A stretch of 64,000 nt of DNA from the NCBI GenBank assembly GCA_963781585.1, contig CAWAGQ010000009.1, forward strand, positions 91,566 to 155,565. The letters are read 5' to 3'. A program made the translations under genes and the position numbers. Source of the DNA: an uncultured Gemmatimonadaceae bacterium. Lineage in GTDB: Bacteria; Gemmatimonadota; Gemmatimonadetes; Gemmatimonadales; Gemmatimonadaceae. Below are positions 37,026-58,778 of this stretch, piece by piece. Position 1 is the stretch's first letter, and every line of letters begins with the position of its first letter. The notes under the pieces were generated by a model. That model saw only the letters and a list, made by a program, of their open reading frames with translations, made no database searches and had not been told where the DNA came from.

Positions 37026-37063
37026 CTGACTGCCTCCTTAGGTATGTCGAGTTGAGAGCGATG

Positions 37064-39411: not shown

Positions 39412-39458
39412 ATGGTAGGCTTCCCTCGATGCGCTGTCAATGAAATGTCCCACCGCGT
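39412..39458 (-). promoter_or_regulatory. Conserved cassette promoter/operator, copy A
   Basis: 23-bp invariant element running into TTGACA-17-TACCAT. Confidence 0.75.
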
Positions 39459-39593
39459 GACAACGGAGTCCGTCCGAACGCCGTGGGATCGCCGCGACGG
39501 GTGCGGCATCCGCACGAGGCGCAGGAGCAGCCCGTGAGGGAAGTCAGCCAGTCGGCAGTTCGCTCATGCTACACGCCACGCCTGTGGCGCTCA

Positions 39594-40407
39594 TCACTCG
39601 CGCCGCACCCACCACTCGATCGCCCTCCGGAGGCCGGCGTCGCCGCGCAACTCGCCGAACGAGACCCCGGCATGGCGATGCACGAAGTTCTGCAGCGCCG
39701 GTTCGCTCGAGAAAGCCGAGATCCCGGGCCACCTCGACCGCCGTGACCGAGCTGCGGGCACACGCGGCCCCGACATGAAGAAACCGCCCAGCATCGATCA
39801 CCTGGTGCGCATCCCGCCACCCGCGGCGCTGCACCTCCCGCAGCACCGTCCGGCGATTGACCGCAAACTGACCGGCCAGGCTTGCGGACCAAGGTTGTTG
39901 CGTGCGGGGCGGGCTCACGGCGAGCGGACGGTAGGCATTCCGTGCGCACCACGATTCCTCCGCACAGCCACGCGACCAGTGCGCGTATCGCAGCAGACCG
40001 GCGAGACTGGCGGGCAGGACGTGCCGGAGCCGCTGCATGACCTGATTGCGCAACTCAGCCTCTCCCGTCGCGGCCAGCCACAAGTCATCGATGGACGCGC
40101 CCGCGAGTTCGGTGATGCGGCCCGTGGACAGATCCTCACGCCCAATGCACAGGACCACGTGCGCGAGCGGGTACCGGTACCGGAAGGCGATCAGGTCGTC
40201 GCCGGACAGTCGGCCCCCGTCCGTGTGTGTCCCGACCAGCACCACCATACGTTCACCCACGAGCGTCGGGAACCCGGGCACTTCGTCCAGCCCGTGCACA
40301 ACGGCCACGGCCGCGGGCACACCGCGCAACGCTCGGCACACCTGTTGTCGGAGCAGCGGATCGCCGACGGCCACGCAGACGCGGGCAGGACGCGGATCGT
40401 GCCACAC
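39594..40407 (-). pseudogene. Receiver-like + AraC-type HTH regulator, copy 1 (frameshift near 39710)
   Basis: LAGQFAVNRRTVLRE..RFLH..VARDLGF / SEPALQNFVHRHAG; one extra base versus copy 2. Confidence 0.7.
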
Positions 40408-40414
40408 GCGCGCC

Positions 40415-40507
40415 TCACGAGCACCGTGGCTCTGTCGTGCCCCCCCCCACCCCACGCCGCGTCCCTCTCTGCTCCGAATCGTGCGCGAACGAACTGGTGT
40501 CCAACAT
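40415..40507 (-). other. Putative uORF/leader peptide (30 aa) before the AraC regulator
   Basis: GGAGG RBS; MLDTSSFAHDSEQ...; homologous uORFs at 48577-48672 and 53198-53278. Confidence 0.4.
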
Positions 40508-40531
40508 GCCTGCCTCCCACTGCGTCGCGCC

Positions 40532-40597
40532 CGGAGCTGGCGTGCGGCTCACTCGGCTGCGCTGGTTCCAAGATGTGGGTTCGGGCCCGCCGCGCAA
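40532..40597 (-). promoter_or_regulatory. Conserved promoter 2 + leader, copy 1
   Basis: TTGCGC-16-CATCTT followed by a conserved ~40-nt leader; three copies. Confidence 0.55.
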
Positions 40598-40920
40598 GCC
40601 ACCGCGTCGTCACATCCCTCACCGACCTGGACGGTGAAAGCCGCTGCGTCTGACCCGGCGTTCGCACCGTGCCCGGCCGCCGCAGTCTGCACATCCGGCG
40701 ATCGCCGAGTCACCGAGGTCGGGATCGAACGTCACCGCGGTTGCGATCGAACGTCACGATGACCCCGCGATTGCCCGAAGCTTGTTCCCCGCCGACTGCG
40801 GCAGGTGACCAGCGACGGAGTTGGAGCGCTGTCCGTTAGGCTTCGTCGTCGCGCCGTGCAACAGCAAGTTTTCCACGCTTTTTCAGCAGCCTGCTAGACG
40901 GCTCCGCATTCAGCCCCCTG

Positions 40921-41235
40921 GTGTCCCGCCGGCTACCGTCTGCACTGCCGCCCACACATCCCGGCGAGATGCTGCTCGAGGAATTTCTCAACCCTCTCGG
41001 CGTGTCGCAGTCAGCGTTCGCCATCCGACTCGGCGTTTCTTTCCCGCGACTCAACGAAGTCATCCGGGGCAAACGCAGCGTCACGCCCGACACGGCACTG
41101 CGCCTGGCCCGCGTGACGGGGATGAGTGCCGACTTCTGGCTTGGTCTGCAGCAGGACTGGGATCTCTGGCATGCGCTTCGCTCCAAGCGGGCGGCCGCCA
41201 TCGCGCGACTCGAGCCCCTGCCACGCTCGGGCTGA
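40921..41235 (+). CDS. higA: HigA antitoxin (orphan; higB lost)
   Basis: PTHPGEMLLEEFL..RSVTPDTALRLAR..FWLGLQ; near-identical to 49325-49651. Confidence 0.9.
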   Translation: MSRRLPSALPPTHPGEMLLEEFLNPLGVSQSAFAIRLGVSFPRLNEVIRGKRSVTPDTALRLARVTGMSADFWLGLQQDWDLWHALRSKRAAAIARLEPLPRSG

Positions 41236-41411
41236 CCACGATTGCACCGCGGCCCCAGGCAGGGCACCGTCATTTCGCAAGGCCGGAAGTCAGCCAGAAG
41301 GACCAGATGAGATTCTGATGGCGCTCCCACGTATCCGCGAAGACGCCGCCGCAGACTCACAGGCGGGACTTGCCGGGAGAATCGTGAGGCGCCCACACCG
41401 GGCCCCACGCA

Positions 41412-41802
41412 CTACAGCGGTTTTCGCGGGACGAGCACGCTTGCCGAGCTATCGGCGGGATGGCTCCCCCGCTGCCAGTCCCAGTCCAGGCCGGGTTTGA
41501 GCACGACGTACACCGCGTTGTTCGTCCCCAGGCCGGGCATCGACGTGTCCCAGCAGTTCACATACCGGATCTCCGCGATATCCCCGGCCCGGATCGACGC
41601 GAGAACGGAATCCACCAGATCGGGCTCCGGCGTGGGCTTCCGCGCGCGGCGGACGACGTGGACCGGGCCCCCCTGGGCCGCGCCAGCGAACTTGGCCATC
41701 CAAAGCACCCGCCGACCGTTGACCCAGACATTGTCGACCGCCTGCCCGGGACACCGTCCCTTGTCGCCGAGCATGTCGGGTCGGAGCTTGCGAAGCGCGT
41801 CG
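41412..41802 (-). pseudogene. 5'-truncated copy of the short carboxypeptidase-regulatory-like protein
   Basis: Matches the C-terminal ~130 codons of 49835-50743 and 59311-60234; homology stops near 41802. Confidence 0.8.
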
Positions 41803-41894
41803 CGCAGGAACAGAGCAGCGGCGTTGCCGCGTCGAGTACCCCGGCGCCGCGTTGACTGACGGTCATGACCGGACCTGCCCGACCCTCTACCGGC

Positions 41895-42350
41895 TCAGCG
41901 CCCACTGCCCACCGTGTCCCGCCTGACGTCCTGCATCCAATCGGCGCGGACGGGCGACTTCGTCGAGTCGCGACGAAAGCGGATGGCGATGGCCCATGGA
42001 CCTGGGGTGATGAACCGCATGTTCGCGTAGTAGCTGCCCAGCTCGGCGCCGGGCACGAGGGTGTCGGAATACGACGCCAGATCGAGACCGGTCGCGAACA
42101 GCGCGCCGCTACCACCTTCGATCGGCTCACCCGTCCTGGCGTCGCGGACAATGACCTTGTACCGCACCACATCCCGCACGTGCGGCGGCAGCGGCTCGGC
42201 CAGTACCCGAATCGAGAGATCGTCGGCGAACAGGATCGTGGAGTAGTCCGGTGACTCGGGAGCGCAGCACAGGGCGACCACTGCCAGAGGGAACACCAGC
42301 TGCGCGGCCAGGGAATTTGCCGGGGAGCGCCTGCGAGGGAGCCGCTTCAT
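41895..42350 (-). CDS. Hypothetical exported protein, possibly YtkA/FixH-like Ig fold
   Basis: Start MKRLP overlaps the upstream stop; YKVIVRD.RTGEPIE, G.YYA..RF..PGPWAIAI. Confidence 0.55.
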   Translation of the reverse strand: MKRLPRRRSPANSLAAQLVFPLAVVALCCAPESPDYSTILFADDLSIRVLAEPLPPHVRDVVRYKVIVRDARTGEPIEGGSGALFATGLDLASYSDTLVPGAELGSYYANMRFITPGPWAIAIRFRRDSTKSPVRADWMQDVRRDTVGSGR

Positions 42351-43486
42351 GGTGTCCACTTCCAGGCGTAGACCACCAGCTCCAGCCCTATTCCGCTTCT
42401 CGTCGCAACCAGAAGCGAGGCATGACGTGCGGCTGCGCGGACTTCGATCGATGACCCGGGTTGCGTCATGCTCATGAACCGCCCGAGAGTGTCGTATACC
42501 ACCAGCAGCCGGCGCTCCGATGCGGGATCCACAAGGGTCTGCGCCACGGCCCGGTCGAGAGCGACCGCGGGAAGTGCGTCCCAGGACCGAAACGTCTCGG
42601 CATACGCCTGGGTGCCGAAGGACAGCGCTCCCGTGGCGTGAGCGCGGCGGGCTCCGGCGCTGTCCAATCGCATCCAGCCAAAGGGCCACTGTGCGGAACT
42701 GAGAAGGATGCCACCGCGTCCGCGCGCGAGGACCAGGTGTGAAACGTTGTACGCCCTGTCGAAAAGGGCATCGAACGTCACCGCGAGCACTGGACGGCCG
42801 CCAAAGCGAAGCCGTTCAAGCTGCACGGGCTGGTCTCGAGAGGCGAGGAGGATCGTCCAGGAACCATCCGATTGGGCAGCACCGGCAATGCGGCGTCCTT
42901 CGTGCCGCATGTGCTGCGCGACACAAGATCCGTCGTCTCGGATGTGGAAGAGTGCCTGACGAGTGCTGTCCACGATCTCGACCAGGGAGGTACCGGGAAC
43001 GAACGAGGCGGCGGCAACGCCCTCCAGGCGGCCCTGGCAGAGTGCGCGGCCTGGATGCGTCCCTGCGCGCACGAGGTAGACTGCGGAGAGCGTCCAGTAG
43101 AGCAGCCCGGTATCCTCCGAAACGTCAGCGCCGGCGATCACCCGGTGCTCAATGGGCACCGTGAGGAGCTCGTTGAGCTCCAGCTCCTGATGCCGCGGGA
43201 CAACAGGCCGATAGGTGGGACCTTCACACCCTGTAATGACAGCGGCTGCCAAGGAGAGCACGATCGCCACTCGATAAGACTGACTGGGCGTCACCTTCGC
43301 AGTGCGCGACCACCGCGTGGGGCGGTGTTGCTCCTGGCCTGATAAGGGAGTACTGCTGCACAGATCATGGTTGGGGTCCTGCCTCTGCGCCTGGCAGTGA
43401 ATCACCGGTTCTCCATTCGGGACCAGACTACCCATGCCAAGCACGCAGCCGGGACGCAATTGAGGAATCGATCCGATCCACATCAC
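42347..43486 (-). CDS. Hypothetical lipoprotein, possibly a divergent beta-propeller
   Basis: VITGC lipobox (likely start GTG 43294); short beta-strand repeats such as LVVYDTLGRF. Confidence 0.5.
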   Translation of the reverse strand: MMWIGSIPQLRPGCVLGMGSLVPNGEPVIHCQAQRQDPNHDLCSSTPLSGQEQHRPTRWSRTAKVTPSQSYRVAIVLSLAAAVITGCEGPTYRPVVPRHQELELNELLTVPIEHRVIAGADVSEDTGLLYWTLSAVYLVRAGTHPGRALCQGRLEGVAAASFVPGTSLVEIVDSTRQALFHIRDDGSCVAQHMRHEGRRIAGAAQSDGSWTILLASRDQPVQLERLRFGGRPVLAVTFDALFDRAYNVSHLVLARGRGGILLSSAQWPFGWMRLDSAGARRAHATGALSFGTQAYAETFRSWDALPAVALDRAVAQTLVDPASERRLLVVYDTLGRFMSMTQPGSSIEVRAAARHASLLVATRSGIGLELVVYAWKWTP

Positions 43487-43597
43487 GTGTCCCAGCCTCC
43501 GGCAAATTGAGGGGCGAACGAGTCTGCTCGACCTTGGCTCGAGGAGAACACGAGCGCATCCGTCGAAAGGGCGTCTCCGGTAGGCGGGACCCCTATG

Positions 43598-44671
43598 CTA
43601 TGACCTGCCGACACGTGGGTAGACGCGAAACATCGCGATATGGTGTCGTCGGCGAACGTCTCTGTACGAGACAAGGACAAAATGATCGCTGACCTGTAGC
43701 AGCCTGACTCCCGCACCCAAGAAGGTGACATCGCCAAGCACCGTGCCAGCACTATCAACCAGGCGATAGACGGCCTTCTCCGCGAAGAAGGGCGAGACCC
43801 ACAGCCACAGGGTCCCGCTGGGTGTGGACTTGAGCGCATTGTACGGCGGCATGAACTTCGGTTTCGGAAAGCTCTCTAGGTAGTCCCTCTGCCGCGTCTT
43901 CCCCTTGACGCTGCCGAGCAGCAGGTTGATCGCGTCTGCGTACGCTTTGTCGCTAACTGGCCGCCCGGGGATGCCGGCCGGGATAGCGCCCTTCTTTTGG
44001 CCGTTCAAGGAATACACGTCCACAAAGGCAGACTCGCCGGTTCCCACGTAGAGCCCTTGGTCAAATACACCGAAAGTCGTTACCGTCCCGAGAGCACGGC
44101 GCTCGCCGAGCAGAAGACTGTCGAGCGATGCGATCCTGTCGCCGTTCCAGTCGAGGAGCATCAAAGTTGCGTATGTGCGGGCTTCGAGGCCGCCAAGTTG
44201 GAGAGACGGATTGTCCAGCCGACCTCTGATTACGGCCAAGAATCCTCTCGGGGAGCACGCCACGCCAATCGACCTCGCTGGGACACGGAACTCGCGGACG
44301 GCGAGTCCAGCGGAGTCAAAAACCGTGATCCGGGATAGACCCGGGTCCCATGCGAATAAGGAATCCGCATGACAAACTCCAACCCAGGTAAGTCGACGAA
44401 ACTCACCGAGTTCACTTCCCCCCTTCCCCACATGGTGAACCACGTTGCCCAAGGAGTCGTAGAAACTAAGGGACAGGGTCCGACTATCTGCAAAGACCAG
44501 CGCATTGCCGACGCGAGTGGCGTGACCTGCATCGACCGGCCCAATGTCCACTACAGCCAGCGAATCAATCGAGGGTCCTTTCGCCTCTAGCTTGAGACGC
44601 TCGGGGACTTCTCCGGAGCAGCTCGCCGAAACGATGAGAGGCCCCAACCAAAGCCACTGACGCAGAATCAT
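43598..44671 (-). CDS. Beta-propeller-like lipoprotein
   Basis: VSASC lipobox; VGKGGSELGEFRRL; RITVFDSAG; MPPY...GTLWL. Confidence 0.7.
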   Translation of the reverse strand: MILRQWLWLGPLIVSASCSGEVPERLKLEAKGPSIDSLAVVDIGPVDAGHATRVGNALVFADSRTLSLSFYDSLGNVVHHVGKGGSELGEFRRLTWVGVCHADSLFAWDPGLSRITVFDSAGLAVREFRVPARSIGVACSPRGFLAVIRGRLDNPSLQLGGLEARTYATLMLLDWNGDRIASLDSLLLGERRALGTVTTFGVFDQGLYVGTGESAFVDVYSLNGQKKGAIPAGIPGRPVSDKAYADAINLLLGSVKGKTRQRDYLESFPKPKFMPPYNALKSTPSGTLWLWVSPFFAEKAVYRLVDSAGTVLGDVTFLGAGVRLLQVSDHFVLVSYRDVRRRHHIAMFRVYPRVGRS

Positions 44672-45336
44672 TCACGGCTCCGCAGTCTGTTGGCACGAGC
44701 GGAATCCACTTTGCGTGCCACGATCTCTGCCAGGTCCGGCGGAAGTCCCGGATAAAGGTCACCATTTATCAGGATCGTGGGCGCTGAAGATGTTCCAAGC
44801 GCCTCTGCAGCAGCGACATCAGCCCGGAGCTCTCGGCTCGTTTCCTCATCTCCGAGGCACTCCGCAAAAGCGTTGGTGTCCGACACGCCGGCTGCCTGCG
44901 CCATGGTGGACCACGACACTCTGCCCAGATCAGCTGAGTGACCAAACAGAGCGCGACGCACCGCTTCAAACTTACCTGCGCGCCGTCCGCAAATCGCAGC
45001 CATCGCCGCGCCCACTGCGCCCGGCTTTAGAGGCAGATTACGCCTGACGACGACTAAATCCTTCCCGTACTTCGCAATCAAAGAATCGAGGCGCCCGTCC
45101 AGCAGCGCGCAAGCACCGCAGAGGTAATCAGAAAACACAACAATCGTAACCGATGCGCTCGACGCCCCGTCGCGGACGCCTTCACTTGCGTACGCACTCC
45201 AGTCGGCAACACGGCGCCAAGGTTCGATGCTAGTGCGCCCATCCTTGGTGCGACTCTGCCACACAGAGCGCGCACTCCAACCGACAGCTGCGGCGACCAC
45301 TGCTGCAGTAACGGCGTTACCGAGGCGATGATGCAT
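44668..45336 (-). CDS. DsbA/thioredoxin-fold protein
   Basis: VTIVVFSDYLCGAC; RNLPL; SAPTILING; N-terminal TM segment. Confidence 0.82.
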   Translation of the reverse strand: MHHRLGNAVTAAVVAAAVGWSARSVWQSRTKDGRTSIEPWRRVADWSAYASEGVRDGASSASVTIVVFSDYLCGACALLDGRLDSLIAKYGKDLVVVRRNLPLKPGAVGAAMAAICGRRAGKFEAVRRALFGHSADLGRVSWSTMAQAAGVSDTNAFAECLGDEETSRELRADVAAAEALGTSSAPTILINGDLYPGLPPDLAEIVARKVDSARANRLRSRE

Positions 45337-45401
45337 CACACACCACTCTCCGAACGATGCCGCCGACTCTGTGACGACAGGTGCACCGCGGGGGCTTTCA
45401 G

Positions 45402-45641
45402 CTATCGCTGAGGGGCAAGGCAGGTACCGTCCAGGTCCGCGCCACCGATCACGCACCATGGATTAGGGTAGCATTCGCAATTGCCACCTGTACACGAGAC
45501 GTCCTCACTACACGAACAAACCTCCATGCTGCAGCTGTATACCTTGGCTGGCGGTGGTTTGTAGGCAGCGAAGCCGGCAGTTGCCCCGATTACCAACGGC
45601 GCGACCGCCCACAGTATCTTCGTTCCTGCCGCAGTTCGCAC
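45402..45641 (-). CDS. Small secreted Cys-rich peptide P3 (8 Cys)
   Basis: RBS GGAGGGAG before GTG; hydrophobic leader; C-x4-CxC-x5-C-x4-CxC-xPNPW-C-x10-C. Confidence 0.78.
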   Translation of the reverse strand: MRTAAGTKILWAVAPLVIGATAGFAAYKPPPAKVYSCSMEVCSCSEDVSCTGGNCECYPNPWCVIGGADLDGTCLAPQR

Positions 45642-45688
45642 GTTTCTCCCTCCGAGAGTCATGAAGAATCACCGCCCTCAATGGGACA

Positions 45689-46810
45689 TCACTGGAGTAA
45701 CCGATACAGAACGACGGTCTCGACATCGTTTTCATCCTTTCGGACGCCGGCTGCATAGTCGTTCCCGATCTCAAACAGCCGCACGTGGGCAGGGCAAGCG
45801 AGCCGCGAGAGGACGTGGCCACGCTCGTCCATTCGAGCGTATGTCGAGGGATCTTCGGGGTCGAGACGATACTGTTCGACCCAGACCGTCCCGGCGAATC
45901 CAGGAAGCACACGCGAGAACGCCGGTGCCAACTCGCTCCGTCTTGACGCGTTGTAGATCCTCGCGGTCCGTGTACTGTCGGCTGCCGTTCGCGCCTTCGT
46001 CATGGCGAGGTCCCTCGCTCTGCCAAGCTCGGATTCAGACAACGAGAGTCGGCGGAACGGCGTGCTGACCCGCCGGACGAAGGAACCGCTGGCGTCGTAG
46101 ACGAGAAGCTCGTCGCTGTCAGGATTCCCAACCCAGATGCGACCGGCAGCTGCCAGCAACGCGCCCAGCGATCGCACGCGGTCAAGCGAAGGGCTGGAAC
46201 GTCCGCCACTGTTCGCTACGCCGGTCGCAAAGTACGGGAAGTACGGAAATCGACCAATGACCTGAACGTCGCCGTCCTGGGCTCGCCAAATGCCGGCGCT
46301 GGTGCTGTCCCAGAACGGCCCCACTCCTGCGTGAGCGGCCGGGCGTCCCACCGTCGCTACCAACCATGCGTCGCCTGTGATGTGCCCGATGACGATCATC
46401 CCTGGCGGACCGGCCCGAGGAGCAAAGGGCATTGTCGATACCTGCTTCCCAGGGACGTCGTATATTGTTATACGGGCAAGCTGCACATCATACAGCAGCA
46501 GCGAATCTCCTGAGCGCCCGTACCACCCGGGGGTCGAAAGTTCGCCGGGTCCACTGCCGGGCCTGCCGATCAGGCGTTCGAAGCGGCCCGCGGGAGAATA
46601 CAGACGGATTTCCGGTGGGGCCCCATTCACGACTGCAAGCTGCCCGCTGCCGAGTCGCGTGACGCCCCCGATAGCGTTGAGCTGCGCCATCGTATCGCTA
46701 ATAGAGCCGATTGTCAGAAGTGGCTGCAACACAGCCTGTTGCCCCCTCGCTACGGACGACAAAGGCATACTAGAGAGAAGCAACACTAGGGCCACGCGTC
46801 GAGAAAACAT
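45689..46810 (-). CDS. Exported beta-propeller-like (NHL/6-bladed) protein
   Basis: Signal peptide; IGRPGSGPGEL; PAFSRV..GTVWVE; RKDENDVETVVLYRL. Confidence 0.75.
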   Translation of the reverse strand: MFSRRVALVLLLSSMPLSSVARGQQAVLQPLLTIGSISDTMAQLNAIGGVTRLGSGQLAVVNGAPPEIRLYSPAGRFERLIGRPGSGPGELSTPGWYGRSGDSLLLYDVQLARITIYDVPGKQVSTMPFAPRAGPPGMIVIGHITGDAWLVATVGRPAAHAGVGPFWDSTSAGIWRAQDGDVQVIGRFPYFPYFATGVANSGGRSSPSLDRVRSLGALLAAAGRIWVGNPDSDELLVYDASGSFVRRVSTPFRRLSLSESELGRARDLAMTKARTAADSTRTARIYNASRRSELAPAFSRVLPGFAGTVWVEQYRLDPEDPSTYARMDERGHVLSRLACPAHVRLFEIGNDYAAGVRKDENDVETVVLYRLLQ

Positions 46811-47045
46811 CGCGATCTCAGCCTCGATGAAGGTGCATGCGTGCTAGCCGTCGCTCATTGGCCACCACAAGACGCCGCAATAACTAGCCCGTTCCACCCA
46901 GCACACACCGCCTTCGCCGTGCGTTGCGGGATCCCGTCATGGTCACAACGTTGATGGGCGATGCCCCTATGGGGACATTCCCAGCTCGTCCGCCCTTTGC
47001 AACGCTACCTCGAGCGAAAAGTGCTTGGGACCCGCTGACTGTTCC

Positions 47046-47270
47046 TCACTGCACAGGAGCGCAGTTCCCGGCAAGATCATGAGTCAGATAGCACCATGGA
47101 TTGGGCATACAAGCGCAGCTGCCGCCGCTGCACTGGTTGTTTTCATCGCAGATGCACCCGACATCACAGCTGAACAATGCGGCGCGTGCCGGACTGAAGA
47201 TCGCGTACGCTGCATTGAGCGCAACTATCGTCAGGGCTACACCCAAGATTCGGGTTCGACGGCTTTTCAT
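47046..47270 (-). CDS. Small secreted Cys-rich peptide P4 (8 Cys), same family as P3
   Basis: RBS GGAGG; signal ending ARA; C-x3-CxC-x5-C-x4-CxC-xPNPW-C-x9-C. Confidence 0.8.
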   Translation of the reverse strand: MKSRRTRILGVALTIVALNAAYAIFSPARAALFSCDVGCICDENNQCSGGSCACMPNPWCYLTHDLAGNCAPVQ

Positions 47271-47579
47271 TGGGACCTCCATCTCAACAAGCCAAAGGAA
47301 TTGCTGCCTCTCTCGTTCTGTCGTGCTGCTCTCCCTTCCCCTATTAACAGAATGCGTGCGTTACTTCATCGCCCCGCTCCGCAGCTGCCGCCAACGCAAC
47401 CTCCCTATCCCGTTGCGATGAGCCGCGGAGCGTCTGACTCGCGCGGTCCGCACTCTTCCGTCCACGGAGGATCTCGGCGACGCTCGCCTCCCGGAAAGGC
47501 TGTACCGACACCTGTACTTGGTCACTCACGTGCTGCTTCAGTGTCGTCCGTGCCGGACTCCTTCAGCAGCTGTGCGACG

Positions 47580-47626
47580 ATGGTATGCGCCCCCGGATGA
47601 ACTGTCAATGAAATGTCCCACCGCGT
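47580..47626 (-). promoter_or_regulatory. Conserved cassette promoter/operator, copy B
   Basis: 23-bp invariant element running into TTGACA-17-TACCAT. Confidence 0.75.
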
Positions 47627-47754
47627 GACAACATCGTCTGTCCGAAGGACGTCGGATCCCCGAGAGATGGGTGCGGCACGTGGACGAGTCGCAGGACCAG
47701 CTGGGGGGAGAAAGTCGGTAGCTGGCGTATGCTGGGCCGTGGCGGCGCTGCTCA

Positions 47755-48569: not shown

Positions 48570-48576
48570 GGGCGCT

Positions 48577-49013: not shown

Positions 49014-49020
49014 ACGCGTC

Positions 49021-49314: not shown

Positions 49315-49324
49315 ACGACTCCGC

Positions 49325-49651: not shown

Positions 49652-49834
49652 AGCCGAGGGTGCCGTGCGCTGTAATTTCTCACGAGCGACGGGTCGCTAG
49701 CGCTGGCGGGCTTTCCATAGAAGGTGAGGACGAGATTCTGGCAACGCTCCCACGTGTCCATACAGACGCCGCAGCGTACTCACGGCGGGACCTGCCGGGA
49801 GAAACCTGAGGCGCCCGCACCGGGCGCGACCGCA

Positions 49835-50743: not shown

Positions 50744-50796
50744 GCGTCCGGAATTGCGGGGAGCTCGGTAATGGCGAGTATGCGGTGCGCTCGCAC

Positions 50797-53193
50797 TCAC
50801 GGCGCCCGCGTCCACAATGCAATGGTGCCACACGCCGCACCCACGCCGCCGAAGCGCATCGGCGTGCTGGCCGGTCCCGCGTAGATCTCGATCGCCTCGA
50901 TCCCGTTGGGCGCAAAGTCGTCGATGTTCGGCGGATCCTGGCCCTTCCCCGGCTGGAAAATCACCGTGCCGTCAAGGTACACCTGGTAGTAACAGTGGCC
51001 CGAGCGATTGGCGGAACGCGTGCTCTCCAGAAAGACCGACCCGTCCGCCCGACGCGCCAATCGTACTCCGGGAACCGAACGGATAACACTGCTCAGGGGC
51101 CACTCCTCGTGCCTTGCCAGGTCGGCACGGGTCAGGAACCTGCCGCCCGCATTGGTCGCGCGCCGCTCCTCGAACCCGCGCATCTTGGAGGCTACCGGCG
51201 TGGTCGTCACCGCCACGCCCGGCAGCTCCGTGACAGCCAGCGTCAGGACGAACTCGCGGACAGAGTCGTTAGGCGCGGGGAGCGTGATGCGCTCGACAAC
51301 CGGCCGGTAGCCCACCTCGCGCACCACCACGGTGTACGTGCCGCGCGGCAGCATCGCAACAGCGAAGGTCCCGTCCACACTCGTCCGCACCGAACGCGAC
51401 TGTCCCAGAAGGAGCACCTCCGCCGAGGCGGCAGGACGCGCCATCGAGTCCCGTTTGAGGAGCACTCGGCCGCGGAGCGTAGTCGATCCGGTATGGGCCG
51501 AATTCAGGGCCAGCGTCACCTCGACCACGCTCGCAGTGTCGTCGTCCGCCAGGCTCTCCTCCACCCTCGTATCGCCGAGCGCCGCCCGCAGCCGCACCAT
51601 GTCCTGCCGCGGCGGGCGGCAGAACGTCACGATTCCTGCCTCGTCCGATTCGGTCTCCATGGTGGAGTCCCCGACGGCTGCGCTCACGAGGTTCCCCGAC
51701 GCTTGCATGGCAATCCGTCGCCACGACATCACGGCGCGCGCCCCACGCACAGGCGCCCTCGTGAGCGAGTCGACGAGATACCCGATGATGAGCTGCTGCC
51801 GATCACGCCGCGCGGTTTCGTTCCCGCAGAAGCGCGCGCGCAGCGTCCCCGCGCTCGCCACCGCCCAGTCGGCCACGGTCGCCTGGCCTCGCGACAGCAC
51901 GACCTCACGTTGCGCACCCTCGACGCTGAAGTGCGCGAGCCGCGGGTCGTCCGTGGTGAGGAGGTACCGCCCCGCCAGCGGCGTTTGCAGCCGATACCGG
52001 CCCGCGCTGTCGGTCGCCGCGCTGGCTGCACCACCGGCCAGCAGCAGCCGGGCGTTGGCGAGGGGTGTGCCGTGCAGGCTGTCGAACACCACTCCGGTCA
52101 GCGCCGGCGTGTCGGCCAGCGTCTCCCCAGCGCTCGGCAGGGCAGCCCAGCCCCCCTCCTCGCGGTAGCCGAGGAGACTGTCACGCGCCTGCACCGTGAA
52201 TCTCCCGACCCGCTCGGCGCCTACCCGCACCATCCGTGGCAGTCGGATGTACCATTGCCCCACAATCCACTGGCCGTTCGGCAGCGCCACGAACTCCAGG
52301 CGCCCGCCCGGCTGTCCGCCGTCCGCGCCTGCCGGGGTCCGCGTGTACGCGTAGTCCAGCAACCGCAGTTCGCTCGTCTGCCGATCGACCCAGAGCACGC
52401 CGGTGACGTCACTGACCTTCCGGCCCGGGGCCGGCTCGAACGATAACCCGATCAGCGTCTGCGCCCCCGCGACCTCTTTCATCCCGAAGCAGTGGTCTTG
52501 CGTGAAGCGCTCCGAGAGCAGGAGCGCCGCGTCCGGCGCGAAGTATGTGAGTTCGCCGTCCACTGGGTGGATGAAGCCGAGGCGTGAGAGTTCCTCCGCC
52601 GGCGCGGTCAGGAACGGCGATCCACCCTGGACTGATCTGGATCCAGTGGTTTCGGCCACCACGCGCAGCGCCTGGTCGAGCGTGCGGGTGTAGCGCCACA
52701 CTCTGATCGGAAGCGCCTGGGGCGCGGTCAGCACCGTCGCATCCAACGCCTTGCGCACTTCCGCCCAGAGCCGGGCTGCCAGGGTGCCGGCACTGGGGTC
52801 CAACTTGCAGGTGCGCCGCGCCCGGACGGCGACCCTCTCGAGCGTAAGCGGCCGCGGGACGAGCGCGATGCGCACCGTCTGGGGTTCCCCACGGAGCACC
52901 AGCACCGCCGAGCTGTCGGTGGCGTAGCCGATCCGTTCGGCGCGCACGCGGACTCGTGCGCCTAACGTGCCATGCAGGGTGGCACTCCCCTGTTCATTCG
53001 TGAGCGCGCCGGTGTGCCGCGACCCGTCGGCGAGTGTCAGCGAGACGATCGCGCCTACCAAGGGCGCGTCGGAGTCGTGGTCGACCACTTCGACACGGAC
53101 GGCCTGGGCGCACAGTGGCTGCGCCTTAATCGCCACCATGAACGTGACGAGGAAAAGCCTGCGACAACCGTGGTTCATCGAGTTTGGGCACAC
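50797..53193 (-). CDS. Long multi-carboxypeptidase-regulatory-domain + TonB plug-like protein (no barrel)
   Basis: Repeated G.V.D...P...A/RIGY modules; GFEERR; IEAIEIY.GP.STP..FG..CGTI.LWTR. Confidence 0.75.
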   Translation of the reverse strand: MCPNSMNHGCRRLFLVTFMVAIKAQPLCAQAVRVEVVDHDSDAPLVGAIVSLTLADGSRHTGALTNEQGSATLHGTLGARVRVRAERIGYATDSSAVLVLRGEPQTVRIALVPRPLTLERVAVRARRTCKLDPSAGTLAARLWAEVRKALDATVLTAPQALPIRVWRYTRTLDQALRVVAETTGSRSVQGGSPFLTAPAEELSRLGFIHPVDGELTYFAPDAALLLSERFTQDHCFGMKEVAGAQTLIGLSFEPAPGRKVSDVTGVLWVDRQTSELRLLDYAYTRTPAGADGGQPGGRLEFVALPNGQWIVGQWYIRLPRMVRVGAERVGRFTVQARDSLLGYREEGGWAALPSAGETLADTPALTGVVFDSLHGTPLANARLLLAGGAASAATDSAGRYRLQTPLAGRYLLTTDDPRLAHFSVEGAQREVVLSRGQATVADWAVASAGTLRARFCGNETARRDRQQLIIGYLVDSLTRAPVRGARAVMSWRRIAMQASGNLVSAAVGDSTMETESDEAGIVTFCRPPRQDMVRLRAALGDTRVEESLADDDTASVVEVTLALNSAHTGSTTLRGRVLLKRDSMARPAASAEVLLLGQSRSVRTSVDGTFAVAMLPRGTYTVVVREVGYRPVVERITLPAPNDSVREFVLTLAVTELPGVAVTTTPVASKMRGFEERRATNAGGRFLTRADLARHEEWPLSSVIRSVPGVRLARRADGSVFLESTRSANRSGHCYYQVYLDGTVIFQPGKGQDPPNIDDFAPNGIEAIEIYAGPASTPMRFGGVGAACGTIALWTRAP

Positions 53194-53197
53194 GCTC

Positions 53198-53370
53198 CTA
53201 CCCAACGGCAGTTGTCTTCATTCGCCCCGAGCGTCTTCCCGGTTCCGAATGGTGCACGAACCAACGGGCGTCCGACATGGCGCCTCCCGCTGCTGCTGCG
53301 CGCCTGGAGCTGGCGTGCGGGTTACTCGGCTGCGGTCACTCCAAGATGTGGGTTCCATCGGCGTGCGCAA
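53198..53370 (-). promoter_or_regulatory. Promoter 2 + leader + uORF (53198-53278), copy 3
   Basis: TTGCGC-16-CATCTT at 53343-53370; leader as in copies 1/2; uORF MSDARWFVHHSEP... Confidence 0.5.
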
Positions 53371-53582
53371 GCCAGCACGTTGTCCACCTGCGCCCAGCCG
53401 AACGTCGCCGCGTGCGGTCGGCAAGACCGCTGGCGCAGATCGACGCGCGCGGTCTATCACCGTTGGCGGTTCTCGCTACATCGCTCAGCCGCCACATCCG
53501 AGAGAGCACCGAATCGACATTACACTGGCCTGATCCACTGCGAGAGTGTGGCAAGTGCGGCGGAAGGCGCCGCGTTGGTGGC

Positions 53583-54767
53583 TCACTGCCTGCGCACGCG
53601 ATAGAGCGCGACAGTCTCGGGACCATCCTGGGGCGCGATGCGCAACAGAAGATTCAGATTATCCGCGTGCAGCACACGGGAGTCAGCAGGCAGATTGATT
53701 CGACTGAGAACCTTGCCACTCATGTCGAGAACGAGCCAGGCCGCCGTGTTTGTCGAGCTTCTTTCAAAGGTCTCTATCCAGACGCGATCGAGTTCGTCAA
53801 CCACCAGGCGGCGCAGATAACGAACGCCGCTCGGCACTGGAGCTGACGCGTACACACGGGTGAGCAGTTGGCGAACCCGCGCGGTGGGCTCGTCCGCAAC
53901 TCGCGCGACTAGGGCGGCTGCGAACTCGGCCGACGTGACCCGATGAGGCGGGAGGGGAACGTTGACACGGCTCGAGTCGCGGGACATCAGCTGATAGATG
54001 GTGATCCAGGACGAGTCATTCCGCGCGACGACTGCGATGTGGGGACCGGCTGCGGCCAGCGTTGTCAGGCCGAGTGGAAGGTCACCATACCCACCGACCT
54101 CCCGTGAGACGTAGCGTTCCGTTCCCGGAAACACGCCGATGGTATCCGATCGCAGGAAGTCCTGATCGATGGATATCAGCAGACCCGGAGTTCGGAATAG
54201 TCCTGACTCTTTGGGCAACGCCCCCGGCGAATCGAAGAAGGCGATGATCCCCCCGTCCGTGCGGCAGGAGAGGGGCCGCAAGACCACAAAAGGCGTCGGC
54301 GCCTTGCGAACCAGTGCCACTTGTCCGGTGGAGTCGAAACGAGTCAGTCGCAACGCAGGCCCGTCGAACGCCGCAAACGCTTTCGGGCCACAGTCACCCA
54401 CCCAACTCAGCTCGCGAAATTCCCCCGGTCCGCTTCCGTTTCGGCCCACGACCCGAGTTATTCGCCCCGGCGAGCGGAAGAACCGAATGCTTCCTGTCGT
54501 CGCGTCTCCGACCGCAATCGTGCCATCGGCAGTGACGAAACCTCCCGTGACAACTCCAAACTGCTGGCTGGTGTCTTGCGACAAGCGGCCCAGAACCTGG
54601 ATCGGGGGTTCGACCAGTGTCCATTGCGAGACCTGGCGGTCTTGATGGGCAGGTCGGAGGGCCACGCACAGCAGCCCGGCTGCAAGCTTTCTCCTTGCCC
54701 TTACGAGCATGAGCAGCGTTGCCTGCTTTCGTTGGAGAGCAGAGTACACGAGAAGTTCCTGCCGCAT
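53583..54767 (-). CDS. Exported beta-propeller-like (NHL/6-bladed) protein
   Basis: VGRNGSGPGEFREL; LTRFDSTG; LVVDELDRVWIE; ETVALYRV. Confidence 0.75.
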   Translation of the reverse strand: MRQELLVYSALQRKQATLLMLVRARRKLAAGLLCVALRPAHQDRQVSQWTLVEPPIQVLGRLSQDTSQQFGVVTGGFVTADGTIAVGDATTGSIRFFRSPGRITRVVGRNGSGPGEFRELSWVGDCGPKAFAAFDGPALRLTRFDSTGQVALVRKAPTPFVVLRPLSCRTDGGIIAFFDSPGALPKESGLFRTPGLLISIDQDFLRSDTIGVFPGTERYVSREVGGYGDLPLGLTTLAAAGPHIAVVARNDSSWITIYQLMSRDSSRVNVPLPPHRVTSAEFAAALVARVADEPTARVRQLLTRVYASAPVPSGVRYLRRLVVDELDRVWIETFERSSTNTAAWLVLDMSGKVLSRINLPADSRVLHADNLNLLLRIAPQDGPETVALYRVRRQ

Positions 54768-54821
54768 AGAGCGTGCCTCCCAGTGCGGCAGGTCTATCGC
54801 GATCCGAGCCGAGCGGCCACA

Positions 54822-55040
54822 CTACTCACCGTAGCAAATGTACTTGTAGTTGGCGGCGGTACACGTCGCGGCGTACAGCTCAGGGACACACTCGCATATG
54901 AGGGCTCCCATCCGGACCTGGTTGGGACAGAGTGACCCCGAAAGAGGCGGGAGCGCCTCCGCCTGCGGTACTCGCACGGCGGCGATGGCCTCCAGCGTGA
55001 CCACTGCCGCCACCGCCAGCAAATTCGTTGGCATCACCAC
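54822..55040 (-). CDS. Small secreted Cys-rich peptide P5 (5 Cys)
   Basis: Hydrophobic leader ending AEA; C-x10-CxC-x8-C-x8-C; first ORF after promoter copy C. Confidence 0.62.
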   Translation of the reverse strand: MVMPTNLLAVAAVVTLEAIAAVRVPQAEALPPLSGSLCPNQVRMGALICECVPELYAATCTAANYKYICYGE

Positions 55041-55081
55041 CCATTACCCCTGGCGCTGCGTGGACTGGCGTGGCAGCGGTG

Positions 55082-55127
55082 ATGATAGTGCGTATCGGTG
55101 AGCCGTCAATGAAATGTCCCACCGCGT
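55082..55127 (-). promoter_or_regulatory. Conserved cassette promoter/operator, copy C
   Basis: 23-bp invariant element running into TTGACG-16-TATCAT. Confidence 0.72.
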
Positions 55128-55199
55128 CACATGAGGCACGGCGTACCGAAGGAGTCCCATGGCTCCGAGGAGCACGGCGAAGGGCGAGCGGCCGGCAAT

Positions 55200-55275
55200 G
55201 CAGTGTCACACCCGACACGGCACTGCGGCTGGCCCGTGTGAGGGGGATGAGCGCCGAGATCCGGCTTGGTCTGGC
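55200..55275 (+). pseudogene. higA fragment
   Basis: SVTPDTALRLARVRGMSAEIRLGL matches the middle of HigA. Confidence 0.7.
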
Positions 55276-55436
55276 GCAGTTGCGGATCGCCGCCCACTGC
55301 GAGCGGTGGTCCTGCCGATGACCCTGAATCTGCCGTACCTCGCGCTCCGGAAACTCCGGTGAAAACCGTTGGCGTCTGTTCGTCATGACTCCAACGTTTC
55401 AAGAGTTGGAGCCTCCAAGTTCCCCGGCGTGGTTCA
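55276..55436 (-). mobile_element. IS3-family (IS51-like) left-end remnant
   Basis: TGAACCACGCCGGGG..GGAGGCTCCAACTCTTGA terminal-repeat-like end, then the orfA start MTNRRQRFSPEF.ER.VR...SQWAAI; truncated. Confidence 0.65.
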
Positions 55437-55523
55437 GTTTTGGGCTTCATCGAGATCGATGCGGAACTGACCAAAGTCGTAGTACAGCGCTGGCACGTGT
55501 CCTGGTCAGGGGCGCTCAGCACT

Positions 55524-57944
55524 TCATGGGGCCCGCGTCCACAACACGATCGTCCCGCAGGCCGCACCGATGCCGCCGAAGCGCATGGGCGTGCTGGCTG
55601 GCCCCGCGTAGATCTCGATCGCCTCGATCCCGTTCGGCGCAAAGTCGTCGATATTCGGCGGATTCGGCGCCCTGTTCGGTTGATAGACCAGAGTTCCGTC
55701 GAGGTACACCTGGTAGTAGCAGGCGGTGCGCCTCTGTTCTTGGAAGCCTGCTACGCCCTCGGAGCGCGTGCTTTCCAGAAAGACCGTGTTGTCCGGTTGC
55801 CGCGCCAAGCGCGCGCCCGGCACCGAACGCAGCACGTCACTCAGGGGCCACTCCTCGTGCTTCGCCAGCTCGGCGCGCGTGATGAACCGGCCGCCGGCAT
55901 TGGTCAGCCGCCGCTCCTCGAAGCCCCGCATCTTGGACGACACCGCGGTCGCCGTGACCGCCACGCCCGGCAGCTCCAGGGCAATCGGCGTCAACACGAA
56001 CTCGCGCACGGAGTCCGCCGGCAGTGGGACCGTCACCCGCGCCAGCACCGGCCGGTAGCCGACGTCGCGCACCAGCACGGTGTACGTGCCGCGCGAAAGC
56101 GCGGCGAAGGCGAACGCACCGTCTGGCGTGGTGCGGGCCGACTTCAAGAGCCGGGGCAGCAGGACCTCCGCCGCCGCCGCTGGACGCGTCGCCGAATCGG
56201 TCTTGATGAGCACCCGCCCGCGCAACGTGGTCGATCCGGCCGCCGCGGTGCTCAGGGCCAGCCGCACCTCCACCACGCTCGCGGTGTCGTCGGCTGGGAC
56301 GCTCCGCTCCACACGCGCCCCGCCGAGTTCCGCCCGCAGCCGCACCACGTCCTGCCGCGGCGGCCGGCAAAACGTGACGATCCCCGCCTCGTCGGATTCC
56401 GTCTCCACGGTGGAGTCGCCGACCGCCGCGCTCACCAACCGCTCCGACGCCTGCACCGCCAGGCGCCGCCACGCCATCACCGCCCGCGCGCCGCTGACGG
56501 GCGCGCCCGAGGCCGAGTCGACAAGATGCCCGATGATGAGTTGCGGCCGGTCGCCCCGCCCCGTCTCCTTTCCGCAGAACCGCGCGCGCAACGTCGCCGC
56601 GCTGGCCACGGCCCAGTTGGCCACGGTCACCTCGCCGCGCGACAACACCACCTCGCGCTCGGCCCCCTCGGTGCTGAAGCGCGCGAGCCGCGGGTCGTCC
56701 GTCGTTAGGCGGTACCGCCCCGCCAGGACGCTGCGCAGCCGGTACCGGCCGGTGCTGTCGCTCACCGCGTCGGACACGCCACCGGCCAGGCTGAGGTGCG
56801 CGTTCGCGAGCGGCCCGCCGTGGAGGCTGTCGAACACGAGCCCGGTCAGCGTCGGCTGGTCGGCCGCCGCGGCTCCCCTCCTGGACTCCGTCGCAGCCCA
56901 GCCCCCTTCTTCGCGGTAGCCCAGGAGGCTGTCCCGGGCCGGCACGCTGAAGGCGCCGACGCGCGCGGCGCCCACCCGCGCCATCCGCGGCAGCCGGATG
57001 TACCAGCGTTCGACGATCCACTGCCCGTCAGGCAGCGCGGCGAACTCGAGGCGCCCGCCCGCCTGGCCGGGCTCCGCGCCCGCCGGCGGGCGGGTGTACG
57101 AATAGTCCATCCACCGCAGCTCGCCGGTCTGCCGATCGACCCACAGCACGCCGGTGACATCGCTGACTCGCCGACCGGGCGCCGGATCGAACGCCAGCCC
57201 GATCAGCGTCTGCGATCCCGGCACGTCCTTCACCCCAAAGCAGTGGTCCTGCGCGAATTGATCCGAGAGCAGGAGCGCCGCATCTGGCGCGAAATATGTG
57301 AGGTCGCCATCCACCGGGTGCGCGAAACCGAGACGAGACAGTTCTTCGGCCGGTGCCGTCGTGAACGGCGCCCCAGCGGGGACGGATCGCGTCGCGGTCG
57401 TCTCGGCCACAACCCGCAGCAACCGGTCGAGGATCCGCGTGTAGCGCCAGACGTCGATCGGGAGGCGTTGCGGGGCGGAGAGGACGGTGGCATCCAGCGC
57501 CTTGTGCACTTCGCCCCAGAGCCGCGCCACCACCGTACCAGTATTGGGGTCCATCCTGCACGTGCGTGTGGCGCGGACGGCGACTTTCTCCAGCAGCAGC
57601 GGCTGGGGCACCAGCGCGATCCGCACCGACTGCGGCTCCGCCGTGAGCTCGCGGGCCGCCGCGCTGTCAGTGGCGTAGCCGATCCGTTCGGCCCGCACCC
57701 GGATCCGTGCGCCTAACGTGCCATGCAGGGTGGCACTCCCCTGCTCGTTGGTCAGCGCGCCGGTGTGCCGCGACCCGTCCTCGAGGACGAGCGACACGAT
57801 CGCGCCCACCAGCGGCGCGCCCGACGCCCGATCGACCACCAGAACCCGGACGTCCTGCGCCAAAAGCGGCTGGCTCGCCATCACAACCATAAACGCAACG
57901 ACGGAAAGCTCGCCGCGAGCGAAATTCATCGCGCGTGGGCACAT
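55524..57944 (-). CDS. Long multi-carboxypeptidase-regulatory-domain + plug-like protein (paralog of 50797-53193)
   Basis: Collinear high similarity with 50797-53193. Confidence 0.75.
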   Translation of the reverse strand: MCPRAMNFARGELSVVAFMVVMASQPLLAQDVRVLVVDRASGAPLVGAIVSLVLEDGSRHTGALTNEQGSATLHGTLGARIRVRAERIGYATDSAAARELTAEPQSVRIALVPQPLLLEKVAVRATRTCRMDPNTGTVVARLWGEVHKALDATVLSAPQRLPIDVWRYTRILDRLLRVVAETTATRSVPAGAPFTTAPAEELSRLGFAHPVDGDLTYFAPDAALLLSDQFAQDHCFGVKDVPGSQTLIGLAFDPAPGRRVSDVTGVLWVDRQTGELRWMDYSYTRPPAGAEPGQAGGRLEFAALPDGQWIVERWYIRLPRMARVGAARVGAFSVPARDSLLGYREEGGWAATESRRGAAAADQPTLTGLVFDSLHGGPLANAHLSLAGGVSDAVSDSTGRYRLRSVLAGRYRLTTDDPRLARFSTEGAEREVVLSRGEVTVANWAVASAATLRARFCGKETGRGDRPQLIIGHLVDSASGAPVSGARAVMAWRRLAVQASERLVSAAVGDSTVETESDEAGIVTFCRPPRQDVVRLRAELGGARVERSVPADDTASVVEVRLALSTAAAGSTTLRGRVLIKTDSATRPAAAAEVLLPRLLKSARTTPDGAFAFAALSRGTYTVLVRDVGYRPVLARVTVPLPADSVREFVLTPIALELPGVAVTATAVSSKMRGFEERRLTNAGGRFITRAELAKHEEWPLSDVLRSVPGARLARQPDNTVFLESTRSEGVAGFQEQRRTACYYQVYLDGTLVYQPNRAPNPPNIDDFAPNGIEAIEIYAGPASTPMRFGGIGAACGTIVLWTRAP

Positions 57945-58090
57945 GCTCCGATCAATAACGGCGGGCTTGACTCGACCGGAGGAGCGACCTTGCCGCAATT
58001 CCTGTACGCATTTATGGGCCAGACTTGCGACCGGTAATCTCGGAGCGCCAAAAGCGAGCCGAGTCCGTTTACGGAGTGGAGCCACCCGAG

Positions 58091-58354
58091 TCATTCGGGG
58101 AGGCAGTCCACTCTCACCTCGACGGGTGAGCCACAACTCGGGTCGTTATACGGACAATCTTGAGCACGACTGTACCCCTGGCAGAAAGCCTGGCAGTCAT
58201 CGTCATACTCGTAATGATCGAGGCACATGATTGGGGGCGGAACGCATATAAAGCATTCGTAGGACCTGGCGGACAAGGGCGGTGCCCCTGCCAAGTCAAT
58301 GCTCCCCAGCATCACGACTGCCGCCGCAGATGAAAGCAGTCTTGTCTTCCACAT
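58091..58354 (-). CDS. Small secreted Cys-rich peptide P6 (8 Cys)
   Basis: RBS GAGG before MWKTRLL; signal ending LSA; mature RSYECFIC...VRVDCLPE with 8 Cys. Confidence 0.72.
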   Translation of the reverse strand: MWKTRLLSSAAAVVMLGSIDLAGAPPLSARSYECFICVPPPIMCLDHYEYDDDCQAFCQGYSRAQDCPYNDPSCGSPVEVRVDCLPE

Positions 58355-58731
58355 AGATGCCTCGCTTAGCAAGGAGTTGACTGCCGATGTTGACGAATTC
58401 GTAACCGCGGTGTGATACCTCCATGGGTTCCTCGATCTGGCCGGCCAGGCCACTCTTTTCCTGCGGCGCTTTGATCGGAGTGACTTCGCGATGAGTCGCC
58501 TACTTGATCGCTTTGGCTGAGACGCACAACGCTTTCTCCCAAAAACCTTGAACTCGTGTCCGGCTCTCCCACGCAAGTGCGAGCACGCCAGCTATGGCGC
58601 CCGCGATGCGCCGCTCACTAGCGCCGCCGAACCCATGACCGGTTCGGAGATCAGGCTGCGTGGCAGAATCCACCGGCAGTCAGTGGATTACCAAGTCGTG
58701 TTGGACTGCGTAAAGTTCCGTAACGGCGACC

Positions 58732-58778
58732 ATGATCGCGCCTTTCCGGTGGGCTGTCAATGAAATGTCCCACCGCGT
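58732..58778 (-). promoter_or_regulatory. Conserved cassette promoter/operator, copy D
   Basis: 23-bp invariant element running into TTGACA-17-GATCAT. Confidence 0.7.

Follow-up and report, generated by a model that had tools for sequence, protein, structure and literature searches.

At class II promoters of AraC/XylS-family activators, such as the 'marbox' promoters of MarA/SoxS/Rob and those of RhaS, XylS and MelR, the activator site overlaps the -35 hexamer, and an asymmetric 18-bp box abutting a -35 fits a site of this class. A 23-bp element with such a layout, here called the box, heads four gene cassettes in a 64,000-nt stretch of DNA (the window, G000:C9:91566-155565) from an uncultured Gemmatimonadaceae bacterium of soil. 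The window is the terminal part of the 155,565-base contig C9 of a draft genome, G000, which comprises 5,715,271 bases in 17 contigs and is 93.5% complete (its contigs are labelled C2, C9 and so on). Unless another contig is named, positions are window coordinates, P1 to P4 denote the four promoter sites, and the relevant genes, at ~33-62 kb, all lie on the minus strand. We propose that each box is an operator within a sigma70-type promoter and that the AraC-type regulator encoded next to two of the copies is its likeliest binder, an explanation that we consider probable as a whole. The element is an ordinary, real cis-regulatory element and its mechanism an ordinary one: an operator fused to a promoter and copied by segmental duplication. 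For Gemmatimonadota, a little-studied phylum, it provides a concrete cis-element together with a candidate regulator.

Set beside AraC/XylS class II promoters as generally described, the box resembles them in being an asymmetric site of ~18-20 bp that abuts or overlaps the -35, and in having a protein with two AraC-type helix-turn-helix (HTH) motifs encoded beside it at P1 and P2. The site reads GACA-N7-GACA, that is, two short elements one helical turn apart with an AT-rich centre. In contrast to that class, the -35 is here of consensus rather than weak sequence, the site is invariant rather than degenerate, only four sites exist, all at one locus, the adjacent regulator genes are frame-broken as assembled, and binding is putative. 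YesN-type response regulators (3lsg) likewise combine an alpha/beta receiver-like N-domain with a following AraC-type HTH, but the regulator described here has neither a Response_reg match nor an adjacent kinase gene and, as we read it, carries Gly or Ala at the phospho-acceptor position. The integron platform (attI/attC with Pc) also consists of unrelated cassettes in one orientation with a short repeat at their heads; here, however, every cassette has its own promoter copy, and there is no integrase, no attC-like repeat and no repeat at the cassette ends.

Four copies of a 23-bp box at probable sigma70-type promoters

The 23-mer GTCAATGAAATGTCCCACCGCGT occurs without mismatch on the plus strand of the window at 39436, 47604, 55105 and 58756. 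Read on the minus strand, the element is ACGCGGTGGGACATTTCATTGAC(A/G), and a spacer of 16-17 nt separates it from TACCAT, TACCAT, TATCAT or GATCAT. On both points the sequence agrees with a preliminary description of this DNA, made from its letters alone, which had listed the four copies and read the -35, spacer and -10 series in the same way. The four sites are:

P1, 39412-39458, minus strand: box 39436-39458; -35 TTGACA at 39435-39440; 17-nt spacer; -10 TACCAT at 39412-39417; heads cassette 1.
P2, 47580-47626, minus strand: box 47604-47626; -35 TTGACA; 17-nt spacer; -10 TACCAT at 47580-47585; heads cassette 2.
P3, 55082-55127, minus strand: box 55105-55127; -35 TTGACG; 16-nt spacer; -10 TATCAT at 55082-55087; heads cassette 3.
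P4, 58732-58778, minus strand: box 58756-58778; -35 TTGACA; 17-nt spacer; -10 GATCAT at 58732-58737; heads cassette 4.

Each site matches 10 of the 12 sigma70 consensus positions, and at all four the TTGACA- and TATAAT-like hexamers lie within 16-18 nt of each other (17, 17, 16 and 17 nt). A consensus scan of 38800-58790 finds 7 promoter-like sites against 1.9 expected, the best 4 being P1-P4. These figures, together with the drift of the spacers, support the earlier claim that conserved boxes around a free spacer mark real promoters. Across the whole genome, TTGACA-N17-TAnnnT occurs 31 times against 3 in a reversed control, a ~10-fold enrichment which indicates that the classical consensus is used in G000; a literature search found nothing on Gemmatimonadota promoters with transcription starts. 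P1-P4 are all intergenic, face their cassettes and are followed by open reading frames (ORFs) with ribosome-binding sites. Other readings of the box were rejected: for sigma54 it offers, by eye, GG-N10-GA instead of GG-N10-GC; for an extracytoplasmic function (ECF) sigma factor, also by eye, there is no conserved CGTC-like -10; and for a terminator a stem is flagged at P1 alone.

The box is confined to these sites. No further GTCAATGAAATGTCCCACCGCGT site occurs in the window at up to 3 mismatches (0 expected from 100 shuffles), and the same four are the sole sites at that threshold in the whole of G000. A second genome-wide scan again gives the 4 exact sites and nothing at 1-4 mismatches; at 5, 6 and 7 mismatches it counts 3, 10 and 110 sites, where a reversed control gives 1, 5 and 48. 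Four exact copies and none at 1-4 mismatches make this a closed set of four rather than a degenerate family, and each of the four heads a cassette.

In a four-way ungapped comparison the core is identical at 23 of 23 positions, whereas identity among the copies falls to 20-42% (60% for P1/P2) in the 60 nt upstream of the box and to 27-44% in the 70 nt downstream. Further conserved columns are the -10 and the CGC directly after it. Local gapped alignments around the box reach 73-86% between units over 50-125 nt; at 80% identity, by our own arithmetic, the chance of 23 unchanged bases is ~0.006 per lineage. The stretch of identity has the same end points in every copy, a pattern better accounted for by selection on these 23 bp than by chance or gene conversion, and the contrast between the conserved core and its drifted flanks likewise points to selection.

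If transcription starts ~7 nt past the -10, as we presume, the 23-mer spans ~-53 to -31 and its last five bases are the TTGAC of the -35. The upstream 18 bp (ACGCGGTGGGACATTTCA), at ~-53 to -36 and centred near -44, would then form an asymmetric operator for one sequence-specific protein; the box itself is not palindromic. A single factor of this kind would place four otherwise unrelated cassettes, which encode Cys-rich secreted peptides alongside thiol-disulfide oxidoreductases and beta-propellers, under common control in trans. In units 3 and 4 the regulator gene is lost while box and -10 are kept, as would be expected of a site on which a factor acts in trans. The prime candidate for this factor is the regulator whose gene lies ~130 nt upstream of P1 and P2; it would act from a class II position overlapping the -35; we infer this position from where the site lies and from the neighbouring gene. 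That the box is promoter plus operator is, in our judgement, rather likely, and somewhat over half of that confidence extends to the adjacent regulator as binder and to activation, rather than repression, as the direction of control.

An AraC-type regulator beside P1 and P2

The two regulator gene copies each correspond to a protein of ~270 aa, predicted to combine a receiver-like N-domain with an AraC/XylS-type two-HTH domain. Their position agrees with the earlier statement that two box copies lie just downstream of AraC-type genes:

Regulator copy 1, 39594-40407, minus strand: alpha/beta receiver-like N-domain and AraC-type two-HTH domain.
Regulator copy 2, 47755-48569, minus strand: 164-aa N-domain ORF and an open frame with the whole 110-aa HTH domain.

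The C-terminal 110 aa of copy 2 match Pfam HTH_18 over positions 1-76 of 80 (E 1.8e-5, 25.4 bits). The curated cut-off of HTH_18/HTH_AraC, 33.6 bits, is reached neither by this part (25.4) nor by the frameshift-shortened copy 1 (14.6) or the paralogue on C2 (20.9). Searched as a single sequence, copy 1 gives no match at E 1e-8 in 300 other genomes of the class, and among 5.8 billion clusters it finds only P0002 besides its own window fragment. Profile searches found a large family, and the orphan impression left by the single-sequence searches is therefore withdrawn: 706 representatives match at E <=1e-3 and 27 at E <=1e-30, mostly proteins of 260-300 aa aligned end-to-end. For closer comparison 42 relatives were aligned, namely the C2 paralogue plus 41 near-full-length proteins picked from the 150 matches listed. 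HTH_18 is matched by 37 of them (E <=1e-3, best 5.1e-14) and HTH_AraC by 10, one is annotated at source as 'AraC-like DNA-binding protein', and the profile of all 42 matches copy 1 at E 5.3e-60. The family is widespread in Gemmatimonadota, with a profile match at E <=1e-15 in 280 of 401 sampled genomes; this count includes G008, G083, G392 and G187, which are flagged unpublished and all match (276 of 397 without them). G008 is also among the 60 relatives that lack the box. G000 itself holds further paralogues on C2, C6, C4, C16, C8 and C3.

The C2 paralogue is intact, and its AlphaFold model, built from 5 sequences at pLDDT 69, has an alpha/beta N-domain with five strands and a C-domain of seven helices. 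Foldseek returns no match to it at E <=0.001, the best being response regulators at E 2e-3 and weaker. By VIA-align, receiver-/flavodoxin-like and P-loop-like folds are on a par for the modelled N-domain (Z 7-10), while residues 147-266 align with the YesN C-domain (Z 7.4), CdpR (Z 7.3) and MarA-DNA (1bl0, Z 7.0), middling values from a model of this pLDDT. HTH_18 matches, family homology and predicted fold together place the regulator family with the AraC type. A two-component response regulator was considered and rejected: Pfam Response_reg has no match at E <=0.05 in any of the four regulator proteins, and the phospho-acceptor Asp expected after strand 3 is replaced by Gly or Ala in our own reading of alignment and model. 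No kinase gene adjoins the regulator.

Copies 1 and 2 are 82% identical outside a 96-nt block (39930-40025 and 48091-48186, minus strand) in which they do not differ at all; this block, which codes for the conserved linker HVLPASLAGLLRYAHWSRGCAEESWCARNAY and extends as far as the 2-nt indel of copy 2, looks like a recent gene-conversion tract. Elsewhere in G000, a trio on C4 (313754-316224) comprises a family member (profile E 4.2e-40), a TPR receptor and a DYINPNA lipopeptide, the latter two without homologue on C9 at E 1e-6; the C9 copies belong to the same regulator family but adjoin higBA and peptide cassettes instead. In G448, which represents another genus of the same family, locus L011 (C101:24210-27166) carries a regulator followed 109 nt on by an 82-aa Cys-rich signal-peptide ORF, and its intergenic DNA has no similarity to the 23-mer. 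At the C2 and C6 paralogue loci no promoter-like site follows the regulator, and a MAFFT alignment of their intergenic DNA with the box is unconvincing. A search for related loci gave 77 and 409 pattern matches, of which 0 were confirmed.

The preliminary description had taken a core of the box, recurring next to the regulator promoters, as a hint of autoregulation. The 9-mer CCACCGCGT is indeed present at 40599 and 48763, and 9 copies occur in the window where 1.9 would be expected, 4 of the 9 inside the elements. The two sites are, however, one duplicated site, and the third homologous copy (53293-53384) has GCCAGCACGT instead; a single duplicated 9-mer, lost in that copy, is not significant, and the hint is dropped.

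Weighing of the explanations

A number of observations tell against the box being an operator bound by the adjacent regulator. In the assembly both regulator genes are broken: copy 1 has one extra base near 39710, relative to copy 2, that breaks the frame inside the second HTH and, as assembled, removes its recognition helix, and copy 2 has two extra bases at 48089-48090, relative to copy 1, that split the gene between the domains. Neither break sits in a homopolymer. A GMC oxidoreductase gene at 26380-28010 (plus strand) is split over three reading frames, so that assembly indel errors and true pseudogenes are indistinguishable for the regulators; the draft also carries 7.19% contamination. 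Three of the four -35 hexamers are the consensus TTGACA, which activator-dependent class II promoters seldom have and which would also be compatible with repression or with a promoter that needs no factor of its own. The box was looked for without success in 60 relatives, in G448 and in a genome and a metagenome contig collection (scanned with exact 20-mers, 0 matches each), and with the box in no other genome searched a phylogenetic footprint is impossible. Within the P1/P2 pair the 31-nt identical run around the box ranks only fourth, the regulator gene having longer ones of 96, 37 and 37 nt, so that the selection argument rests on P3 and P4. Among regulator loci of other genomes, 28 of 29 show no Cys-rich ORF in ~1.4 kb downstream (less in two loci); the exception is L011. 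No RNA runs holding 46000-55900 are listed, and one DNA run (X1, soil) holds a 0.09 share of the sampled words; its contigs, of 150-250 nt and low depth and without indel calls or joints, are too thin to settle either frameshifts or cargo swaps.

On the other side stand the peptide ORF that follows the family member at L011 and the conservation of the HTH part of the regulator. Comparison of the two copies gives, on small counts, a dN/dS of 0.67 for the N-part and of 0.34-0.35 for the HTH part, the stretch past the copy 1 break included, and the recognition-helix stretches RRTVLREV and EPALQNFVHRH (the latter within a 37-nt identical run) are the same in both. Together with the split GMC gene, the conservation between the copies suggests recent function or assembly error.

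The same promoters could operate with the box bound by another factor, possibly an occluding repressor, or with its AT-rich half ACATTTCA serving as a UP-like element for RNA polymerase alone. We hold this to be possible though unlikely. It would suit the three consensus -35 hexamers with their 17-nt spacer, the frame-broken state of both adjacent regulators and the paralogues on six other contigs; however, the GC-rich half ACGCGGTGGG shows no more variation than the AT-rich one, a constancy that a UP element would not need, the HTH parts of the adjacent regulators keep a dN/dS of ~0.35 and identical recognition helices, and the closest paralogues are only ~35% identical, with no similar box downstream of them. 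It is highly improbable that the box is a functionless, neutral relic of segmental duplications, identical by chance or gene conversion. The units are demonstrably duplicated and the 96-nt regulator block shows that conversion occurs here, but conversion tracts would carry flanks rather than share ends; in fact the ends of identity coincide in all four copies, the ungapped flanks are near-random, and the -10 boxes have been conserved along with the box at the appropriate distance.

The preliminary description also held that the box marks a junction of high and low GC and could double as a cargo-exchange point. Over 500 nt, GC falls clearly at P1 (0.698 to 0.560) and P2 (0.704 to 0.600), slightly at P4 (0.640 to 0.592) and hardly at all at P3 (0.646 to 0.632). 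A recombination or cassette-junction site of integron, Xer or inverton type, with the promoter look secondary, would be in keeping with the drops at P1 and P2, with the end of P1/P2 homology 6 nt past the -10 (39406/47574), and with one low-depth X1 contig that matches to 58740, in the P4 spacer, and continues into 102 nt of unlike sequence. That joint could be the junction of another strain, another organism or a chimeric contig. Nevertheless, we regard such a site as scarcely credible. The genome has 11 PF00589 tyrosine-recombinase matches, all of them on contigs other than C9, and no recombinase or transposase family is found among 69 scanned ORFs. An integron-like array would have a recombinase beside it, and here there is one box per cassette with no second box at the far end of any of them; nor do shared inverted repeats flank the promoters as in an inverton, the four 800-900-nt regions having none in common and P3 none at all. 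Weak homology runs past the box into the P1, P3 and P4 leaders, of 12 other loci with these gene classes 10 have low GC (61-65% against 67% for the genome), and the box is missing from every other genome searched. From the earlier interpretation, the promoters and their AraC-type neighbours are retained, and cargo exchange and autoregulation are given up.

A more ambitious extension of the promoter-operator reading draws on the leader of the regulator genes, where a short ORF with a G tract precedes each copy:

Upstream ORF, 30 codons, 40415-40507, minus strand: GGGAGG ribosome-binding site; G9 tract at 40440-40448.
Upstream ORF homologue of copy 2, 48577-48672, minus strand: G10 tract at 48604-48613.
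Upstream ORF remnant, 53198-53278, minus strand: leads the 802-aa surface-protein gene; without G tract.

The two ORFs with a tract, of 30-31 codons and with a strong ribosome-binding site, stop 7 nt ahead of the regulator GTG, and upstream of the C2 and C6 paralogues there are tracts of G7 and G11. Such a tract might permit slipped-strand phase variation, or the ORF translational coupling. In copy 2, the TGA stop of the N-domain ORF (48075-48077) overlaps the GTG (48076-48078) of the HTH frame as GTGA (48075-48078, minus strand), a translationally coupled layout that makes a free MarA-like HTH domain conceivable. One may thus imagine a portable 'plug-in' switch, a promoter-operator module repeatedly copied before disulfide-rich peptide cassettes so that an arsenal is switched jointly, with a master regulator made phase-variable by the G9/G10 tract of a translationally coupled upstream ORF and with the split copy 2 delivering a free HTH domain via GTGA. 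We consider this picture doubtful.

Duplicated units and their cassettes

Self-comparison of the window shows that the module is duplicated: 39406-41802 matches 47574-50225 (86-88% identity), 49810-50793 matches 59286-60284 (91%) and 50784-53198 matches 55509-57949 (76%). Short remnants are also found, 40473-40611 (and 48624-48775) matching 53244-53384, and 41072-41154 (and 49488-49570) matching 55197-55279. Between P1 and P2, homology stops 6 nt past the -10. To judge by these alignments, segmental duplication gave rise to the four copies, and the ancestral unit would have read, on the minus strand, a large CarboxypepD_reg/Plug protein, a second, smaller protein with CarboxypepD_reg, higB-higA (on the plus strand), the regulator, the promoter and the cargo. 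The module of surface-protein genes, higBA, regulator and promoter would have been duplicated, joined to different cargo and partly decayed, with box and -10 left intact. The cassettes now headed by the promoters are:

Cassette 1, 33269-39129, minus strand: headed by P1.
38548-39129, minus strand: membrane-anchored thioredoxin-like gene of cassette 1, first after P1.
402-aa gene of cassette 1, minus strand: function not assigned.
37064-37288 and 36813-37025, minus strand: two Cys-rich signal-peptide ORFs further down cassette 1.
35275-36720, minus strand: alpha/beta hydrolase of cassette 1.
34318-34776, minus strand: Thioredoxin_4 gene of cassette 1.
33269-34069, minus strand: 266-aa member of a multi-copy family in cassette 1.
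Cassette 2, 41803-47282, minus strand: headed by P2.
47046-47282, minus strand: Cys-rich signal-peptide ORF of 78 aa in cassette 2, first after P2.
45689-46810, minus strand: 6-bladed propeller of cassette 2.
45402-45662, minus strand: second Cys-rich peptide of cassette 2.
44668-45459, minus strand: DsbA/Thioredoxin_4 gene of cassette 2.
43598-44671, minus strand: further propeller of cassette 2.
42347-43486, minus strand: 379-aa gene of cassette 2, function not assigned.
Cassette 3, 53583-55040, minus strand: headed by P3.
54822-55040, minus strand: Cys-rich signal-peptide ORF of 72 aa in cassette 3, first after P3.
53583-54767, minus strand: 394-aa propeller of cassette 3.
58091-58354, minus strand: Cys-rich signal-peptide ORF of 87 aa in cassette 4, headed by P4; runs into the 870-aa CarboxypepD_reg/Plug gene (55524-58136).

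The lead peptides of cassettes 2-4 are mutually unrelated by BLASTP, and a database search with the 78-aa peptide gave 0 candidate homologues. NCBIfam provides no specific name for the cargo proteins. The 6-bladed propellers match DUF5128 weakly, a family on which a literature search found nothing, and the clusters nearest to them are Gemmatimonadota hypothetical proteins. The propeller of cassette 3 has a protein copy on C6 that is 74% identical; DNA homology is limited to that gene, and the C6 copy has neither peptide gene nor box. None of 10 Cys-rich peptide genes elsewhere in G000 has a box within 450 nt, one of them having an unrelated TTGAC-type match. The set of Cys-rich peptide, Thioredoxin_4/DsbA-like protein and 6-bladed propeller recurs at C2 (~34 kb), C5 (133-140 kb), C6 (34-39 and 228 kb), C7 (215-217 kb) and C10 (276-278 kb), and the propeller and thioredoxin families count dozens of paralogues in G000. 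The box links four of the places where this gene set occurs, and the genome has at least eight others.

No RNA families or tRNAs were found in the window. The leaders of P1 and P4 are long, ~275 and ~375 nt, and share (39300-39370 and 58640-58700, minus strand) TTGGTAAT, a hairpin and then CCACGC(C)AG..TGATCT, to ~+110. The hairpins differ, being TCAGG..CCTGA in P1 and AATCCAC..GTGGATT in P4, and the stretch has no Rfam match; it is possibly a conserved leader element.

The 802-aa (50797-53205) and 870-aa (55524-58136) paralogues on the minus strand each carry three CarboxypepD_reg domains and, at the extreme C-terminus, a TonB-receptor Plug domain with no barrel behind it; a weak match to an anammox S-layer family is also present. 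A CarboxypepD_reg protein of 332/338 aa comes after one of these genes and recurs at 59311-60327. Toxin-antitoxin-type genes are dense in the window (4176-5087, 40921-41235, 48985-49651, 58778-59212, 60439-61375 and 62612-63609) and comprise Xre/RES, higB-higA, a DUF5615-like ORF, a FitA-like RHH protein with a DUF6036 nucleotidyltransferase, and Phd/PIN; higB-higA is present as one full pair, one lone higA and the remnant at 55197-55279. Such a density is typical of a variable island.

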